Positions 37,537 to 41,702 of a stretch of 64,000 bases of DNA are shown piece by piece (the first letter of the stretch is position 1; each line of letters starts with the position of its first letter). Source of the stretch: a bacterium (lineage in GTDB: Bacteria; Electryoneota; JAOADG01); NCBI GenBank assembly GCA_963681965.1, contig OY820579.1:2048001-2112000 (forward strand), in the 5' to 3' direction. The notes beneath the pieces were generated by a model that did not search any database, had not been told where the DNA came from, and worked only from the letters and a program-made list of their open reading frames with translations. The position numbers and the translations under genes are program-made.

Positions 37537-37707
37537 GACCTGCTCCAGAGTAGCCCTAACTAAGAAAGGTACGGAAAACAAAGCGAGAACGTAACCAGCC
37601 GGAAATGGGTCTGTCTATTTTTATTACAGTTATGTTATTATGGAAGATAGTAATGTTTATTCGAATGATGCTACGGTAGTGTCGCTCGAAACTAAGTTGT
37701 TATCGGA

Positions 37708-37777
37708 AGTCGGGGCTAGCCCCCACGCCCGCTCGCCAACCCTTTTTCTAGTAGGGGCTGACCCCCATGTCCGTCCG
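37708..37777 (+). repeat. Two degenerate GTAG-type REP-like units
   Basis: 37708 agtcggggctagcccccacgcccgctcg resembles 41381 agtaggggcgggctcccacgcccgcccg; 37751 gtaggggctgacccccatgtccgtccg resembles 49731 gtaggggcggacccccgtgtccgcccg. Confidence 0.7.
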
Positions 37778-37788
37778 TGTCCTTAAAT

Positions 37789-37914
37789 TCTGTCATTGCG
37801 AGGACGCCGCAAAGCGGCGGACGTGGCAATCCACTCTTTTCGTCTTTTCCCAACACCCAATCCCTACCACCCAACACCCATTCTGTTGGTGGCGCAGGCC
37901 TCCGAGCCTGTGAT
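37789..37914 (+). repeat. Composite repeat unit A (GTCATTGCGA...GTGGCAATC arm, C-rich spacer, CGCAGGC hairpin); intergenic copy
   Basis: 126 nt; a close copy lies inside the CDS at 38626-38748. Confidence 0.85.
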
Positions 37915-37960
37915 TTTCCTGTAGTACTACCGATCTCCGATTCGGCATTTTGGATCTTTA

Positions 37961-38177
37961 TCTGTCGTTGCGAAGACGACGCGAAGCGGCGGACGTGGCA
38001 ACCTACTCTTTTTTATTCTGTAGTAGTAGGAGCCCTCCGCGGCCTCCCGTTCCAGTATCATTTCTTTGGTTTCCTGTATCCTATTCTGTCGTTGCGAAGA
38101 CGACGCGAAGCGGCGGACGTGGCAACCTACTCTTTTATATTCTGTAGTAGTAGGAGCCCTCCGCGGTCTCCCGTTCC
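37961..38177 (+). repeat. Two near-identical 93-bp direct repeats, 124-bp period
   Basis: 37961-38053 and 38085-38177 differ at two positions (tttttta/ttttata; ggcctc/ggtctc). Confidence 0.9.
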
Positions 38178-38301: not shown

Positions 38302-38330
38302 TTGTAAACACTCTTCGTCCGCATTATTAT
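38302..38330 (+). promoter_or_regulatory. Putative sigma70 promoter of the SBBP gene
   Basis: TTGTAA-N17-TATTAT; GGAG SD at 38353-38356 before ATG 38362. Confidence 0.5.
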
Positions 38331-38361
38331 TGATAGAACCACCTGTCCGACCGGAGCCGCC

Positions 38362-41355
38362 ATGACTTTCCGCCATCGCAGATTTCCACAATCAATGCTC
38401 GCCTTCGCGACGACTCTTATCTTCGTCTTCACAATCCTTCTTCCGCAAATTTCCTACGCCGTCTCGGTACAATCTTCGCGTCTTCCCCACCCTTTCCAGT
38501 TTACCGAGAACAAGGGGCAGTGGGATTCTGCCGTCCTCTATAAATGCGAGGTGCGACGCGATGGTTTCACCTGGTTCCTTGAGCGCGATGGTGTCACCCT
38601 CGTCACTTCCGCAATCGATTCCTCCTCTGTCATTGCGAAGGCGCCGAATGGCGCCTGTGGCAATCCACTCTTTTCAACTTTTCCCAACACCCAATCCCTC
38701 CCACCCAACTCTTATTCTATTGGTGGCGCAGGCCTCCGAGCCTGCGATCCTCTTGTGTCTGGTAAATTCCCCCTAAAATCTCACGCCCTCAAATTTAAAT
38801 TTGTCGTCTCCCGTAGGGGCGAATCGCAAAGTGCTCGCCGAAGGCAATCGCATTCGCCCCTATCTGTTCAAGATGCTCTCACTTGTCGTTGCGAGGAACG
38901 CAGCGAAGGATCGTCCGCCGTAGGCGGAAAGCCGCAGCGAAGTGACGAAGCAATCTACTCTTTTAAAGATTCAATGATACAGGAGGAGATTACCTTCGGT
39001 GAGCCCTTCGGGATTGCTTCGTCATTCCACTTCGGAAGTGCTTCGCACGTTCCTACGTTCATTCCTCGCAAAGACAAAATCAGGATTCAAGATACAAGAT
39101 TAGGGCGTATGCCATACGCCCCTACAGAAAAATATTCGACACAAGAGGATGTCGGAATAAATTCCGACCTACGAAAATACACTTGCGCGAAATGGATTGA
39201 TGCACAAGGTGAACGATCGTGGCATAACAATTATTTCCTCGGAAATGATTCCTCGAAATGGGCACCGGATTGCCGCAATTTTACACGCGTGGTGTATCAT
39301 GAGGTGTGGGAAGGCATCGACGTCGAGTGGTATGAGAGCAAAGGTCATCTCGAATTCGATTTCGTCGTCCATCCCGGTGCGGATCCCAAGCAAATTAAGA
39401 TGGTGTGTGAAGGGTTGGATGCGCCGATAGCAGGCGGAGGACGGACACTCTTGTCCGTCGACTCAGATATTTCTGTCACAAAAGGGAGTCGGACAGGAGT
39501 GTCCGACCTCCACTTATCGAATGAACTTTCGCTTCCCACCTCCCTCGGCGAACTCCGGATGTCAATTCCGGGGGCATACCAAACCACCTCCAACGGCACC
39601 CGCGGAAACGCTGTCACAGCACAATTCAGACTCGAGACAGGAAATGTCTTCGCCATCGATTTGCCGAATGGCTACGATGCATCACAAACGCTGAGAATCG
39701 ATCCTTTGGTGTATTCAACGTATTTGGGAGGAAGCGGAGGTGATCGTGCTGAGGCAATTGTAAGTGATCGAGTTGGGGGTACAGTTATGACTGGTCATAC
39801 ATCCAGCACCGATTTTCCCACGACTCCCGGAACGGGTGATCCCAGCGCTAATGGATATTCAGATTGTTTTATAGCAAAGATAGATTCAATAGGATCGAAT
39901 CTATTGTATGGTACTTATCTGGGGGGAAGTTACCACGATGAAGGGATGAGTGTCGATTACTACTTGGATGGCAGCATCTTAGTAACAGGTGAAACCCAAA
40001 GTCAAAACTTCCCAGTGACCGCCAACAGTCGTCCCTTCATGGGAAGTAGAAATGCATTTGTCACAAAAATTGGGACTAGTGGAAGCAATCTGGTATACAG
40101 TATTTTACTGGGTGGTGTAGGCATTTCTCTGGGTGATTGGGGTGAAACGATTTTGGACGATGGTTCAGGAGGTTGTTATGTTGCCGGTTTTACGGACAGC
40201 CCCAACTTTCCTACAACTTCGATCGACACCACCCTGGGCGGTGAAAGTGATGGTTTCATAACGCATATTGGGCAGACCGGACTTCTCTTTGCGAGTACCT
40301 ATTTAGGGGGGAGTGGGGGAGATTTTATTACTGATGTGCGAATTTCCTCCGATAGCAGTTTGTATGTATGCGGTTTCACGAATAGCAATGATTTCCCTAC
40401 AACACTTAATGCTTATTCTACAACACTGCATAGTACAGCCGATGAAGCTTTTATTGTTAAAATGAATATTACTTGTACTCAATTGATGCTAGGCACTTAC
40501 CTAGGTGGGGGAGCGCGAGATGGCGCTAGCTCACTTAAGGTAATGTCTGATGGAAGCATTGTTGTTGTGGGAACAACAGCCAGTCCTGATTTTCCAGTTC
40601 AAACTGTTTCTTTTGACACAATTTTCAATGCGCAAGTGAAAGGATATATAGCGATCCTGTCCAGTAACTTATCCACACTGCTTGCGAGCACATATTTAGG
40701 TGGAAATACCATTTCGAATTGCATGTCGTTGGACATCTCCCAAAACGGAAATTTAACCATCTCTGGAATAACCACCAGTATTAACTTTCCTACCACATCC
40801 AATGCTTTGCAGAGAGCGAGTGGAGGGTTGCGTGATGGTTTTTTCGCAGTCATGAATCGATCTTGTTCTCATCTGCTTTACAGCAGTTACTTGGGTGGTT
40901 CGAATGATGATGAATGCTATGCCCACTACTTAAAGGATTCAAATAACGTCGTACTAACTGGATGGACAGCTAGCTCGAATTTTCCACTTACTCCAGGGAG
41001 TTTCGACACCACATACACCGCATACACCTCCTTTCTCACCAATCTTCAATTTGAACCCGAAGTTTCGGTTATCAATGTGCCCCCTCTTCCTGTTAGCGAA
41101 AGACTGCTTTACGCTTACCCCAACCCCTTCAACTCCACCACCACACTTTCCTACATCCTCCCGATCACCTCTCACGTCGATCTCCGTCTCTACGATCTGA
41201 CCGGTCGCGAAGTCTCGACGCTGGTGCAACGCGAGCAGCACGCCGGAACGTATCGCCTACTGCTCGATGGTTCACGCTTAGCGAGTGGAACCTATTTCGT
41301 GCGGTTGCAAGCGGGAACATTTTCGAAGACACAGAAGATCGTGTTGTTAAAGTAG
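38362..41355 (+). CDS. Secreted SBBP/beta-propeller repeat protein with T9SS/FlgD-type C-terminal domain and in-frame repeat-derived insertions
   Basis: Signal peptide, FTENKGQW, NYFLGND..KW, EFDFVVHPGADP, IDPLVYSTYLGGSG followed by several STYLGG...G.T.S.DFPTT repeats, and YPNPFN...SGTYFVRL...KIVLLK. Confidence 0.88.
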   Translation: MTFRHRRFPQSMLAFATTLIFVFTILLPQISYAVSVQSSRLPHPFQFTENKGQWDSAVLYKCEVRRDGFTWFLERDGVTLVTSAIDSSSVIAKAPNGACGNPLFSTFPNTQSLPPNSYSIGGAGLRACDPLVSGKFPLKSHALKFKFVVSRRGESQSARRRQSHSPLSVQDALTCRCEERSEGSSAVGGKPQRSDEAIYSFKDSMIQEEITFGEPFGIASSFHFGSASHVPTFIPRKDKIRIQDTRLGRMPYAPTEKYSTQEDVGINSDLRKYTCAKWIDAQGERSWHNNYFLGNDSSKWAPDCRNFTRVVYHEVWEGIDVEWYESKGHLEFDFVVHPGADPKQIKMVCEGLDAPIAGGGRTLLSVDSDISVTKGSRTGVSDLHLSNELSLPTSLGELRMSIPGAYQTTSNGTRGNAVTAQFRLETGNVFAIDLPNGYDASQTLRIDPLVYSTYLGGSGGDRAEAIVSDRVGGTVMTGHTSSTDFPTTPGTGDPSANGYSDCFIAKIDSIGSNLLYGTYLGGSYHDEGMSVDYYLDGSILVTGETQSQNFPVTANSRPFMGSRNAFVTKIGTSGSNLVYSILLGGVGISLGDWGETILDDGSGGCYVAGFTDSPNFPTTSIDTTLGGESDGFITHIGQTGLLFASTYLGGSGGDFITDVRISSDSSLYVCGFTNSNDFPTTLNAYSTTLHSTADEAFIVKMNITCTQLMLGTYLGGGARDGASSLKVMSDGSIVVVGTTASPDFPVQTVSFDTIFNAQVKGYIAILSSNLSTLLASTYLGGNTISNCMSLDISQNGNLTISGITTSINFPTTSNALQRASGGLRDGFFAVMNRSCSHLLYSSYLGGSNDDECYAHYLKDSNNVVLTGWTASSNFPLTPGSFDTTYTAYTSFLTNLQFEPEVSVINVPPLPVSERLLYAYPNPFNSTTTLSYILPITSHVDLRLYDLTGREVSTLVQREQHAGTYRLLLDGSRLASGTYFVRLQAGTFSKTQKIVLLK
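38626..38748 (+). repeat. In-frame copy of repeat unit A within the CDS
   Basis: 123 nt (41 codons, SVIAKAPNGACGNPLFSTFPNTQSLPPNSYSIGGAGLRACD); about 90% identical to 37789-37914 outside the first hairpin. Confidence 0.85.
38813..39172. repeat. Nested REP/palindrome cluster inside the CDS
   Basis: GTAG-REP 38813-38862; large inverted repeat 38884-39076; inverted REPs 39102-39125 and 39151-39172, both ending in CTAC. Confidence 0.85.
39436..39511. repeat. GGAG-type REP doublet inside the CDS
   Basis: GGAG-GACGGACA-ctct-TGTCCGTC ... GTCGGACA-ggag-TGTCCGAC-CTCC. Confidence 0.8.
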
Positions 41356-41650
41356 GGGAGGGCTCGTGAGCCCTCCCGCCAGTAGGGGCGGGCTCCCACG
41401 CCCGCCCGTTCTTGTATCTTTTTCCTTTCCCAATTCCCAACACCTACCCCCTAACACCCTTATTTTCGGAGATGGCCCTTTAGGGCCGTCATTGCTGTTC
41501 TGTAGGGTTCATTCGCGAACGAACCGAGAGCGGTGCTACCTGCACCGCCGTAGGGCGTATGCGATTACCTTCGGTGAGCGCAGAGCGATACGCCCCTATG
41601 GAAAAAAGAGTAGGTTGCCACATCCGTTAGCCAACGGATTCGCACCGACA
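41352..41650. repeat. Downstream mosaic of REP-like units
   Basis: GTAG hairpins at 41352, 41382, 41502 and 41550; GGAG hairpin at 41468; degenerate unit-A spacer near 41430-41465; inverted GTCGTTGCGA-arm copy at 41602-41650. Confidence 0.8.
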
Positions 41651-41673
41651 ATTCACGATTACGAAACAGCAGA

Positions 41674-41702
41674 AATACAAAACGCAGGCTTTCGCCTGCG
41701 TT
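41674..41702 (-). terminator. Terminator of the PEGA gene
   Basis: Minus strand AACGCAGGC-gaaa-GCCTGCGTT-TTGTATT. Confidence 0.65.

Follow-up and report, generated by a model that had tools for sequence, protein, structure and literature searches.

Short palindromes lying in frame within genes, such as the Rickettsia palindromic elements (RPEs) and other intragenic GTAG/CGTC REPs, are assumed to fall in loops of their host proteins (Di Nocera et al. 2013, PMC3733652; PMC10969869). The RPEs raised the question of whether selfish palindromes build new protein sequence, and the locus described here offers a natural experiment on it. In the window (the whole 64-kb stretch of DNA that was analysed), a preliminary description had pointed to a secreted-protein gene, here named p17, in which repeats might add loop sequence and drive or mobilise a diversifying cassette. 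We ask whether the repeats diversify this gene or are carried by it.

Gene p17 and Its Repeats

Gene p17 is one uninterrupted ORF, open, as first described, from a signal-peptide-like start to a sorting domain, and it matches DUF7948, SBBP, and Por_Secre_tail in a Pfam profile search. A signal-peptide-like segment, DUF7948, a seven-bladed SBBP propeller, and a T9SS-type tail follow one another (Table 1), the signal peptide and propeller being predicted from a structure model and alignment. The model is confident overall, and the inserts appear in it as low-confidence loops.

Thirty repeat units were picked by eye between 37708 and 41704, more than the twenty or so first counted; 27 fold as hairpins and three are non-palindromic linker, and most have 10-97 copies in the genome. 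A strict seed-plus-hairpin scan of the window gave 18 matches, 16 at the p17 locus and two elsewhere (27000 and 49731), so the concentration of repeats at this gene is confirmed for the window. Measured between conserved anchors, the coding inserts of loops 1, 2, and 3 are 153, 384, and 105 nt long, and the shortest paralog alleles are 66, 63, and 30 nt. The gain in p17 is 483 nt, and a REP is present even in the shortest site-2 allele; the early estimate of over 500 nt of repeat-derived coding sequence was therefore about right. The coding insert 38637-38756 has an 83% identical counterpart upstream, at 37803-37922. The expression signals first proposed hold in part: the Shine-Dalgarno-like sequence is in place, and the putative promoter motif is at chance level on its own (one in the scan versus 0.8 expected), yet is kept in 12 of the 19 intact paralogs.

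Table 1. Features of the p17 locus, with positions in the window.
Feature	Position	Strand	Basis or remarks
Upstream mixed repeat array	37708..38227	+	GTAG-type REPs; three TGTC (Ssn-type) hairpins, including a 124-nt tandem duplication
REP preceding the promoter, likewise in several paralogs	within 37708..38227	+	part of the upstream array
Putative sigma-70-like promoter, TTGTAA-17-TATTAT	38302..38330	+	motif scan, paralog comparison
Shine-Dalgarno-like GGAG, 5 nt before ATG	38353..38356	+	sequence; common to many paralogs
Gene p17, 997 aa	38362..41355	+	ORF, Pfam, structure model
Signal-peptide-like segment, aa 1-33, variable among paralogs	38362..38460	+	model hydrophobic helix 11-26; alignment
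DUF7948 constant block C1	38461..38619	+	19 paralogs: mean 83% nt, 95% aa; pN/pS 0.05/0.58
Loop 1, in-frame insert: TGTC hairpin, linker, GTGG REP	38620..38772	+	51 aa; empty, 22 aa; predicted disordered (model pLDDT <50 at aa 93-133)
Constant strand C2, 10 aa, between loops 1 and 2	38773..38802	+	alignment; model strand 138-148
Loop 2, in-frame insert: GTAG REP, head-to-head TGTC pair, two antisense GTAG REPs	38803..39186	+	128 aa; shortest alleles, 21 aa; model pLDDT <50 at aa 153-268
DUF7948 constant block C3	39187..39417	+	mean 86% nt, 92% aa; pN/pS 0.045/0.52
Loop 3, inverted GGAG REP pair	39418..39522	+	35 aa; empty, 10 aa; model pLDDT <50 at aa 359-383
Constant block C4, ending at the conserved Asp-Pro motif (constant/variable border)	39523..39714	+	mean 83% nt; D and P invariant in 107 homologs
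Variable seven-bladed SBBP beta-propeller, AT-rich	39715..41115	+	50-53% nt to all other paralogs; unique in genome
Constant T9SS-type C-terminal domain	41116..41355	+	its TAG stop codon belongs to the next REP
Downstream mixed repeat array	41352..41704	+	

Repeats across the Genome

The genome contains 1141 strict repeat matches, with 85 clusters of at least five; the seeds alone number 1361 in 4.24 Mb, against a chance level of 23 per Mb in shuffled DNA. Per 64 kb, the median is 8 and the maximum 119, against 18 in the p17 window. What was first called a repeat hotspot is thus peculiar in having repeats inside a gene, not in its REP density. Within ORFs of at least 250 aa, 123 of the 141 matches belong to the p17 gene family, rather than to unrelated genes genome-wide; two more lie in a RAYT-like gene, and the other 16 look by eye like chance seeds or over-called ORFs. 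The GGAG REP pair of loop 3 has 32 of 33 and 33 of 35 copies inside the family, and this near lack of outside copies indicates that the pair spread from copy to copy, not by fresh insertion. Whole composite coding inserts are also found in intergenic arrays. A clean empty insertion site was looked for and none was found.

The GTAG-type REPs conform to those of REPtrons, hairpins of 20-40 bp with a GTAG-like tag, and have 10-97 copies per family. As with NIME-type elements, arrays are enriched beside secreted or surface genes, but a large share of the repeats here is intragenic instead of non-coding and flanking. A REP at most 500 nt downstream was seen for 17 of the 26 ORFs of the family, for 57 of the 178 others that bear the tail, and for 183 of the 1814 that remain (raw counts, uncorrected for operon position).

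A Dispersed Family of Mosaic Paralogs

An N-terminal anchor is common to 27 dispersed genomic loci, of which 19 are intact and full-length and seven are broken or truncated. The expectation of many paralogs with similar ends and different middles was borne out: DNA identity is 80-90% in the DUF7948 part and most tails, and GTAG/GGAG REPs and TGTC hairpins of at least five families occupy the three predicted disordered loops in frame, in 17 combinations among 19 genes. This disposes of the idea of a single-copy gene lacking insert variation.

DUF7948 and most tails are homogenised within each genome, whereas the propellers are old, AT-rich, and diverse, with about eleven deeply different types. 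Mean nucleotide identity among the 19 paralogs is 83% in C1, 86% in C3, 83% in C4, 57% in the propeller, and 68% in the tail, and Spearman correlations between segment identities range from -0.08 to 0.46. For example, p09 and p13 are 99% identical in C3 and 52% in the propeller; p02 and p03 share tails at 94% and propellers at 54%, and p15 and p25 at 95% and 52%. Site compatibility is higher for neighbouring than for distant sites (0 of 2000 permutations as low), and linkage decays within 15-30 nt all along the constant blocks, at hairpins and away from them alike. The family thus shows mosaic exchange between conserved flanks. In the constant-part tree, all 19 genes of this genome group together (19/19, support 99/100). 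In a quick propeller tree the genomes are intermixed: the label of this genome needs seven changes, and p07 joins two genes of the related genome G001 at 99. Seven genes have one propeller type in common, and placing them together in the constant-part tree was not rejected by an AU test (p = 0.075). Synonymous sites of the constant blocks have diverged strongly (0.37-0.58); homogenisation is therefore slow and fine-grained, not recent.

Similarity starts at varying 5' borders, the outermost at the upstream REP and the innermost at the mature N-terminus. Frameshifts in p05 and p24 lie within loop 2, at module junctions; in one relic, precisely the C3 block separating loops 2 and 3 is missing, p21 ends at loop 2, and p27 starts at the Asp-Pro border and continues into a REP array. 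A downstream REP accompanies 13 of the 14 intact genes with the shared tail and none of the five with a divergent tail. There is no single expression locus with silent cassettes: the 19 full genes have signal-like N-termini and are all dispersed.

Inserts and Selection

The pN/pS ratio is 0.08-0.28 in the constant blocks, 0.33 in one propeller subfamily, and 0.5-1.9 in five insert modules. Judged from these ratios, the insert peptides evolve neutrally and purifying selection acts on the host domains. The repeats therefore resemble passengers that gene conversion has spread and the reading frame has filtered. Together with the predicted disorder of the loops, this argues against the proposal that repeats add useful sequence. 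The arms of the loop-3 hairpins are an exception at the DNA level: their third-position diversity is 0.02-0.07, versus 0.14 in the spacer and 0.32 at flanking third positions, and no hitch-hiking footprint was seen around these hairpins. Such conservation may reflect DNA-level selection or drive.

As expected of invaded genes, empty alleles are known, both in p09 and p19 and in other phyla. Among 178 other long ORFs with the same tail type, no clear internal REP was seen by eye. Several lineages have seeded the same loops independently, with their own repeats, and so has p22, a non-homogenised member; tolerance alone therefore does not explain the exclusivity.

The constant/variable pattern is repeated in the related genomes G001, G003, G026, and G030, in the last two despite only short inserts. 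Four queries (DUF7948, Ssn, RAYT, and the G003 insert) all have matches in G001 and G003 but none in G002, a 100% complete genome of the same taxonomic family; this contrast involves one genome, and kin are not independent.

Cognate Enzyme Genes and Export

The predicted enzyme genes carrying the same repeats were found elsewhere in the genome, four RAYT-like and two Ssn-like GIY-YIG genes, and each of five repeat families of the locus flanks a cognate one. Each Y1/RAYT-like gene is flanked by one or two REP families, as in a REPtron. Two were compared with NF047646 and scored under the model cut-off (E 1e-18), and one (C1:345517-346362) contains four in-frame REP copies. The GIY-YIG genes (95 and 102 aa, single domain, above the Pfam GIY-YIG cut-off) lie inside TGTC arrays with TGTC/CGTC hairpins on both sides, an arrangement repeated for the homologs in G003, G026, and G018.

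The tail models TIGR04183/PF18962 score above cut-off and the genome has two PorV-family matches; p17 may be a T9SS cargo protein. The best fold match of the modelled propeller is CylK/BrtB (PDB 7ron; Z 45.7, rmsd 1.9 A, 378 residues). Only the propeller aligns (model 295-749), at 19% identity, and a sequence similarity search for CylK gave no match. CylK depends on Arg105, which its N-terminal domain supplies (PMC8916777), and this domain is unmatched in the p17 model; for these reasons, we make no catalytic claim for p17. The ComEC family is present in the genome.

How the Repeats May Have Entered the Family

We consider it rather probable that a dispersed, recombining family of secreted propellers has turned into a sink for host REPs. 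Homologous recombination (gene conversion among copies), with DNA taken up from kin as a probable extra partner, would use the constant blocks to swap tails, N-terminal parts, and propellers, and would thereby keep up a varied set of propellers exposed at the surface for binding or catalysis. RAYT- and Ssn-associated hairpins would have seeded three loops tolerant of any peptide, and recombination with other copies and intergenic arrays would then have gained, lost, and reordered modules. The process itself would not keep the frame; selection would purge out-of-frame products. In other words, the repeats would be mostly passengers that also offer extra homology, and functional diversity would lie in the propeller. 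The short inserts of G026 and G030 and the fine-grained recombination along the whole constant part argue against repeats as the driver.

A different explanation, unlikely but to be taken seriously, is that Ssn-like GIY-YIG and RAYT-like HUH enzymes are domesticated nickases that cut single-stranded DNA hairpins and start conversion or shape fragment integration. The repeats would then be selected recombination handles, by analogy an intragenic version of the Neisseria NIME/NTS hypothesis. N. meningitidis SsnA indeed cuts NTS-bearing single-stranded DNA and alters integration, but it lowers, not raises, the integration of NTS-flanked DNA (PMC11893778). Consistent with nicking are the pairing of five repeat families with cognate enzymes, the crowding of repeats within ~4 kb of the 27 anchors (267 of 1141 matches and 31 of 85 large clusters), the downstream REP that tracks the shared tail, the lack of all four query matches in G002, and the ends of the relic, p21, and p27 at loops, the Asp-Pro border, and a REP array. 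On the contrary, linkage decays everywhere in the constant blocks, the 5' borders vary in a way not expected of a site-specific event, repeats are missing from the propeller borders that matter for exchange, and G026 and G030 show the pattern with short inserts only. The wider proposal that such enzymes form a surface-repertoire generator, using hairpins of three dispensable N-terminal loops and of the tail end as nick sites and arising repeatedly in one phylum with different hairpins, seems doubtful to us; if true, it would reshuffle every segment from promoter to tail, N-terminal blocks and propellers included, across about 25 expressed copies.

It is rather improbable that the inserts are retained because they have a function themselves, either as RNA hairpins between the folding units of DUF7948 (translation pacing, mRNA protection) or as disordered surface decoys or spacers. 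At least one hairpin does occur in loop 2 of all 19 intact genes, the loop-3 arms are conserved in a family almost without outside copies, and loop 3 of G003 tolerates >200 extra residues. However, the peptide changes appear neutral, the loops stay short in homologs of other phyla (of 80 parsed loci, 77 and 56 gave median spacings of 85 and 79 aa), and p19 and the G001 gene L037/L186 are nearly empty. Self-templated repair can also conserve a palindrome.

Finally, decaying selfish or junk DNA, or a mosaic assembled artificially from repeats, is hardly credible and largely refuted: although seven loci are damaged, short-read unitigs leave the 5' part of the p17 locus unbridged, and no RNA run is listed with the locus (evidence neither way), the constant blocks are under strong purifying selection, the p17 propeller is 100% identical on one 1779-nt unitig in two public runs, runs from two studies contain both the modules and their junctions, each protein of this genome is recorded on two contigs (one of different length; they may share an origin), and separately assembled metagenome contigs of the G001 species have the same insert arrangements at 100%.

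Comparison with Known Systems

Mosaic surface-protein families include Borrelia vls/vmp and Anaplasma msp2. They resemble the p17 family in their constant-variable-constant layout, segment reassortment, and concerted evolution of constant parts. Here, unlike there, most copies are dispersed with their own putative promoter and signal-like N-terminus, and the variable unit is a whole 470-aa propeller. In Neisseria, pilE/pilS, mafB, and fhaB are diversified by gene conversion between conserved flanks (PMC1797815), and NIME/dRS3/NTS arrays occur with SsnA (Bentley et al. 2007, PMC1797815; Chenal et al. 2025, PMC11893778). In common with NIME, TGTC/CGTC hairpin arrays flank a small single-domain GIY-YIG gene and cluster at variable surface-protein genes, where they are proposed recombination anchors. 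In REPtrons, RAYT-like genes are likewise flanked by cognate REPs, and TnpA-REP subclass 2.4 has in-frame REPs (Quentin et al. 2018, PMC6006769), but there the invaded gene is the transposase itself, whereas the family mainly invaded here encodes secreted proteins unrelated to it. The likeness to RPEs lies in the in-frame palindromes in coding genes and in the use of both GTAG and CGTC/TGTC super-families. RPEs, however, enter genes that are unrelated to one another and mostly single-copy, adding 20-82 aa once or twice per gene; in the p17 family, nearly all intragenic copies lie in three loops of one multicopy domain, at least five families are mixed, and inserts of up to 128 aa (>200 aa in G003) are reassorted between paralogs. 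Each part was already known; the combination was found in no literature searched.

A single genome thus contains alleles of the three loops in four states, empty, partly filled, filled, and out of frame, together with the cognate enzyme genes, and sister lineages show the same pattern with other repeats. This bears on the role of Ssn/SRM and RAYT/REP pairs beyond Neisseria and the enterobacteria. Such families break short-read assemblies exactly at the loops, and are therefore under-counted in MAGs. An uncultured phylum has a constant-variable-constant repertoire of T9SS-type propellers, and the three DUF7948 loops are insertion-tolerant sites (over 100-200 aa).

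A repeat-filled gene in a dispersed family

The gene p17 encodes a putatively secreted protein of 997 aa with Pfam DUF7948, SBBP and T9SS-type sorting domains, and three stretches of its coding sequence (153, 384 and 105 nt) are repeat-derived. It stands among 30 repeat units picked by eye, 27 of which are hairpins, and is the repeat-packed open gene that the preliminary description reported. The same description regarded the locus as a repeat hotspot, which holds within the window, where 16 of the 18 matches of a stricter scan fall at this locus, but not in the whole genome (G000, a single contig of 4.24 Mb), where there are 1141 strict matches and 85 clusters of at least five. 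The repeat density at p17 is ordinary for G000, and what is distinctive is the placing of repeats within a gene. An Rfam scan of the 64-kb window gave zero matches.

The search for paralogs, proposed at that earlier stage, returned by BLAST against the genome 27 loci sharing one N-terminal anchor, with inserts varying at three sites and with unlike propellers. These loci are dispersed through G000 with different neighbours at each, and comprise 19 intact genes (844-1018 aa), the long and divergent p22, and seven broken or truncated copies; a further divergent DUF7948 gene carries no repeats. The inserts are confined to three sites of DUF7948. In the AlphaFold model of the nearly empty paralog p19 (mean pLDDT 86), these sites are loops between strands, and in the model of p17 the inserts, at 93-133, 153-268 and 359-383, have low confidence and the core is confident. 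With the tag set used here, sites 1, 2 and 3 have nine, eight and five alleles, in 17 combinations among the 19 intact genes. In a census whose seeds were partly taken from the p17 locus, 141 of the 1141 strict matches lie well within ORFs of at least 250 aa, 123 of them in family loci; two more are in a RAYT-like gene, and the other 16 resemble, by eye, chance seeds or over-called ORFs.

Features in the window and on contig C1 of G000 (C1: marks contig positions)
Feature	Position	Remarks
p17	window 38362-41355	997-aa ORF
Repeat units at p17	window 37708-41704	
Asp-Pro at constant/variable border of p17	window 39703-39714	invariant in 101-107 homologs; in low-confidence linker
DprA-like gene	window 34184-35287	label by eye
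M14 carboxypeptidase gene	window 47254-49641	tail of same T9SS type as p17
Lone REP	window 49728-49759	follows the M14 gene
L082, Y1/RAYT-like gene	C1:345517-346362	flanked by REP families in/around p17; four own-REP copies in frame, between core halves
Y1/RAYT-like gene	C1:526633	flanked by REP families in/around p17
Y1/RAYT-like gene	C1:529651	flanked by REP families in/around p17
Y1/RAYT-like gene	C1:1138250	flanked by REP families in/around p17
L081, Ssn-like GIY-YIG gene	C1:1431253-1431540	within TGTC hairpin array; 95-102 aa for L081 and L080
L080, Ssn-like GIY-YIG gene	C1:3873448-3873756	within TGTC hairpin array
Relic of family gene	C1:907.8-908.3 kb	behind unrelated gene; loop 2 fused to loop 3, constant block C3 absent
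p12, paralog of p17	C1:1545532-1541414 (-)	IS-like element of ~1 kb with inverted ends, within loop-1 TGTC hairpin; also an early stop
Divergent DUF7948 gene	C1:1620174	
ComEC-family gene	C1:3267225-3268031	
p27, paralog of p17	C1:4182369-4181245 (-)	stops just past Asp-Pro border, continues into REP array

Reassortment of segments

Among the 19 intact genes, mean nucleotide identity is 83%, 86% and 83% in the constant blocks C1, C3 and C4 of DUF7948, 57% in the propeller and 68% in the tail, which is of one type in 14 genes and divergent in five. There are about 11 propeller types (one group of seven, three pairs, six singletons and p17's own), with 50-57% identity between types. GC3 is 0.31 in the propellers; the constant blocks have 0.53-0.69 and the long ORFs of G000 have 0.50. 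The contrast between propeller and constant parts has the same direction in four related genomes (G001, G003, G026 and G030).

The pairwise identities of different segments are almost uncorrelated. For example, p17 has its closest match in p01 for block C1 (91%) and for loop 1 (identical at 152 of 153 nt), in p16 for block C3 (93%), and in p11 for block C4 and the tail, and its propeller is unique. In a PHI-like test, which used 202 informative sites, none of 2000 permutations was as low, and incompatibility between sites reached a plateau within 15-30 nt; an AU test for incongruence, run for a single chosen group, did not reach significance (p = 0.075). In the tree of the constant part, genes cluster by genome (19/19 for G000, support 99/100); in that of the propellers, a quick tree with long branches, the sequences of G000, G001 and G003 are intermixed. 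A repeat-filled, reassorting DUF7948 family is real.

With full-length protein models as queries, the best fold match of the propeller was CylK (Z 45.7, rmsd 1.9 Å, 378 residues), of which the propeller alone aligns. The essential Arg105 of CylK lies outside the propeller, in a domain that is unmatched in p17 (PMC8916777). Because the match excludes this domain, we take the modelled propeller to be a putative scaffold for binding or catalysis, open as to specificity. PDB sequence searches gave no match, and an Atlas search returned DUF7948 clusters only. That phages or substrates exert pressure on the propellers is a guess.

How the repeats may have spread

The reading we consider the best, and moderately probable, is that a repertoire of secreted propellers would be maintained by homologous exchange via the constant blocks. 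REP and SRM hairpins would seed three tolerant loops; this exchange, together with recombination involving intergenic arrays, would then spread and rearrange the inserted hairpins, and selection would keep nothing but the frame. Nearly all copies of the loop-3 REP pair (32 of 33 and 33 of 35) are within the family; the pair has spread from copy to copy. Two family loci are frameshifted in loop 2, at module junctions (sequencing error possible), and for this reason we regard the frame as kept by selection; a frame-phase count of GTAG tags was discarded as circular where genes had been selected as open.

A search for enzyme genes carrying the repeats of the p17 locus, also suggested beforehand, found four RAYT-like and two GIY-YIG genes (Table). 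The GIY-YIG genes have the layout of Ssn nucleases and SRM repeats (PMC11893778). Apart from the DUF7948 family, L082 is the sole clear gene with internal REPs among the long ORFs of G000, and is like subclass 2.4 of RAYT (TnpA-REP) genes, within which in-frame REPs are described (PMC6006769). These enzymes fit the proposal that the hairpins are nick sites of Ssn or RAYT proteins and drive the exchange; set against exchange through the homology of the constant blocks, it seems unlikely, and its bolder form, a domesticated nickase-driven surface repertoire, we hold rather unlikely. In the array around L080, a 102-aa Cys-rich gene, presumably a zinc-ribbon, is tandemly duplicated, with copies on either side of the nuclease gene.

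The inserts might also have a role at the RNA or protein level. Conservation is higher in the arms of the loop-3 REPs than in their spacer or in the third positions alongside, and there is no footprint of hitch-hiking; we cannot explain this by drift alone. Changes in the insert peptides themselves are neutral, with pN/pS of 0.5-1.9 across five modules, so that the suggested benefit of added loop sequence was not borne out, and we hold such a role improbable.

Artefact or decay is very improbable. The 5' part of p17 is multi-copy in short-read unitigs and unbridged by them, and seven family loci are damaged; on the other side, the propeller-tail stretch is present in unitigs of four runs from two studies, with 100% identity across 1779 nt in two of them, and the constant blocks (pN/pS 0.048/0.58, 0.045/0.52 and 0.11/0.37) are under purifying selection, so that the genes are probably translated now or were until recently. 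No RNA run was listed with the locus, which counts neither for nor against its expression. The one variant contig, at 38607-38613, was rejected as a variant of p17, being the paralog p01.

Related genomes

Of 79 genomes of the phylum, 28 have DUF7948, among them G000 with 27 matches, G001 with 13, and G003 and G018 with 11 each (matches, not copy numbers). G001 and G003 have their own distinct repeat strings in the same loops, more than 200 aa long in loop 3 of G003, and pieces of the G003 insert recur throughout that genome, including next to its ssn-like gene. Contigs of the G001 species, assembled separately, repeat the insert arrangements exactly, and three same-locus contig sets showed no strain variation, all being identical. 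G026, from a different taxonomic family, carries a palindrome of another kind in its loops 1 and 2, and other repeat-like peptides occur, at the protein level, in homologs P0026, P0050, P0052, P0067 and P0076. In other phyla the loops stay short in a sample of 80 loci, which were the top hits of a short-loop query and are hence biased against inserts; loop lengths for L106, L107, L122, L137, L140 and L149 were disregarded as regex mis-parses. G002 (2.2 Mb, same taxonomic family) gave no match to DUF7948, to the Ssn and RAYT queries or to the G003 insert.

The PEGA and M24 genes that neighbour p17 are flanked by other genes in G001-G003, and hence p17 does not lie at the M24-PEGA junction there; these three genomes offered no clean empty site, and metagenomes scanned with the PEGA protein as query gave no match.

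Comparison with known systems

On features testable from sequence, the repeats and enzymes belong with REP/RAYT and SRM/Ssn. The family differs in one defining feature each from RPE-like systems, which target unrelated genes, from NIME-like systems, whose repeats are non-coding, and from silent-cassette systems. In-frame REPs in unrelated genes of Rickettsia, Opitutus and others (PMC3733652; PMC10969869; PMC3184786) and repeat arrays adjoining variable surface genes in Neisseria (PMC1797815) have been described. The parts are already known; what appears new is a paralog family as a near-exclusive, convergent sink of intragenic REPs, of which we found no description in the open literature searched (main texts). 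An open-literature search found no paper on DUF7948.

Other observations

The T9SS-type tail ends about 200 long ORFs of G000, and 13 ORFs called outside the family are at least 70% alike in the last 69 nt, two being fragments of broken family genes. A second family of secreted proteins, which begin with AQDSSGV, is likewise flanked by REPs. The DprA-like and ComEC-family genes suggest a possible capacity for natural transformation. It is speculation that the Asp-Pro is an autocleavage site, which would make DUF7948 a disposable pro-domain.
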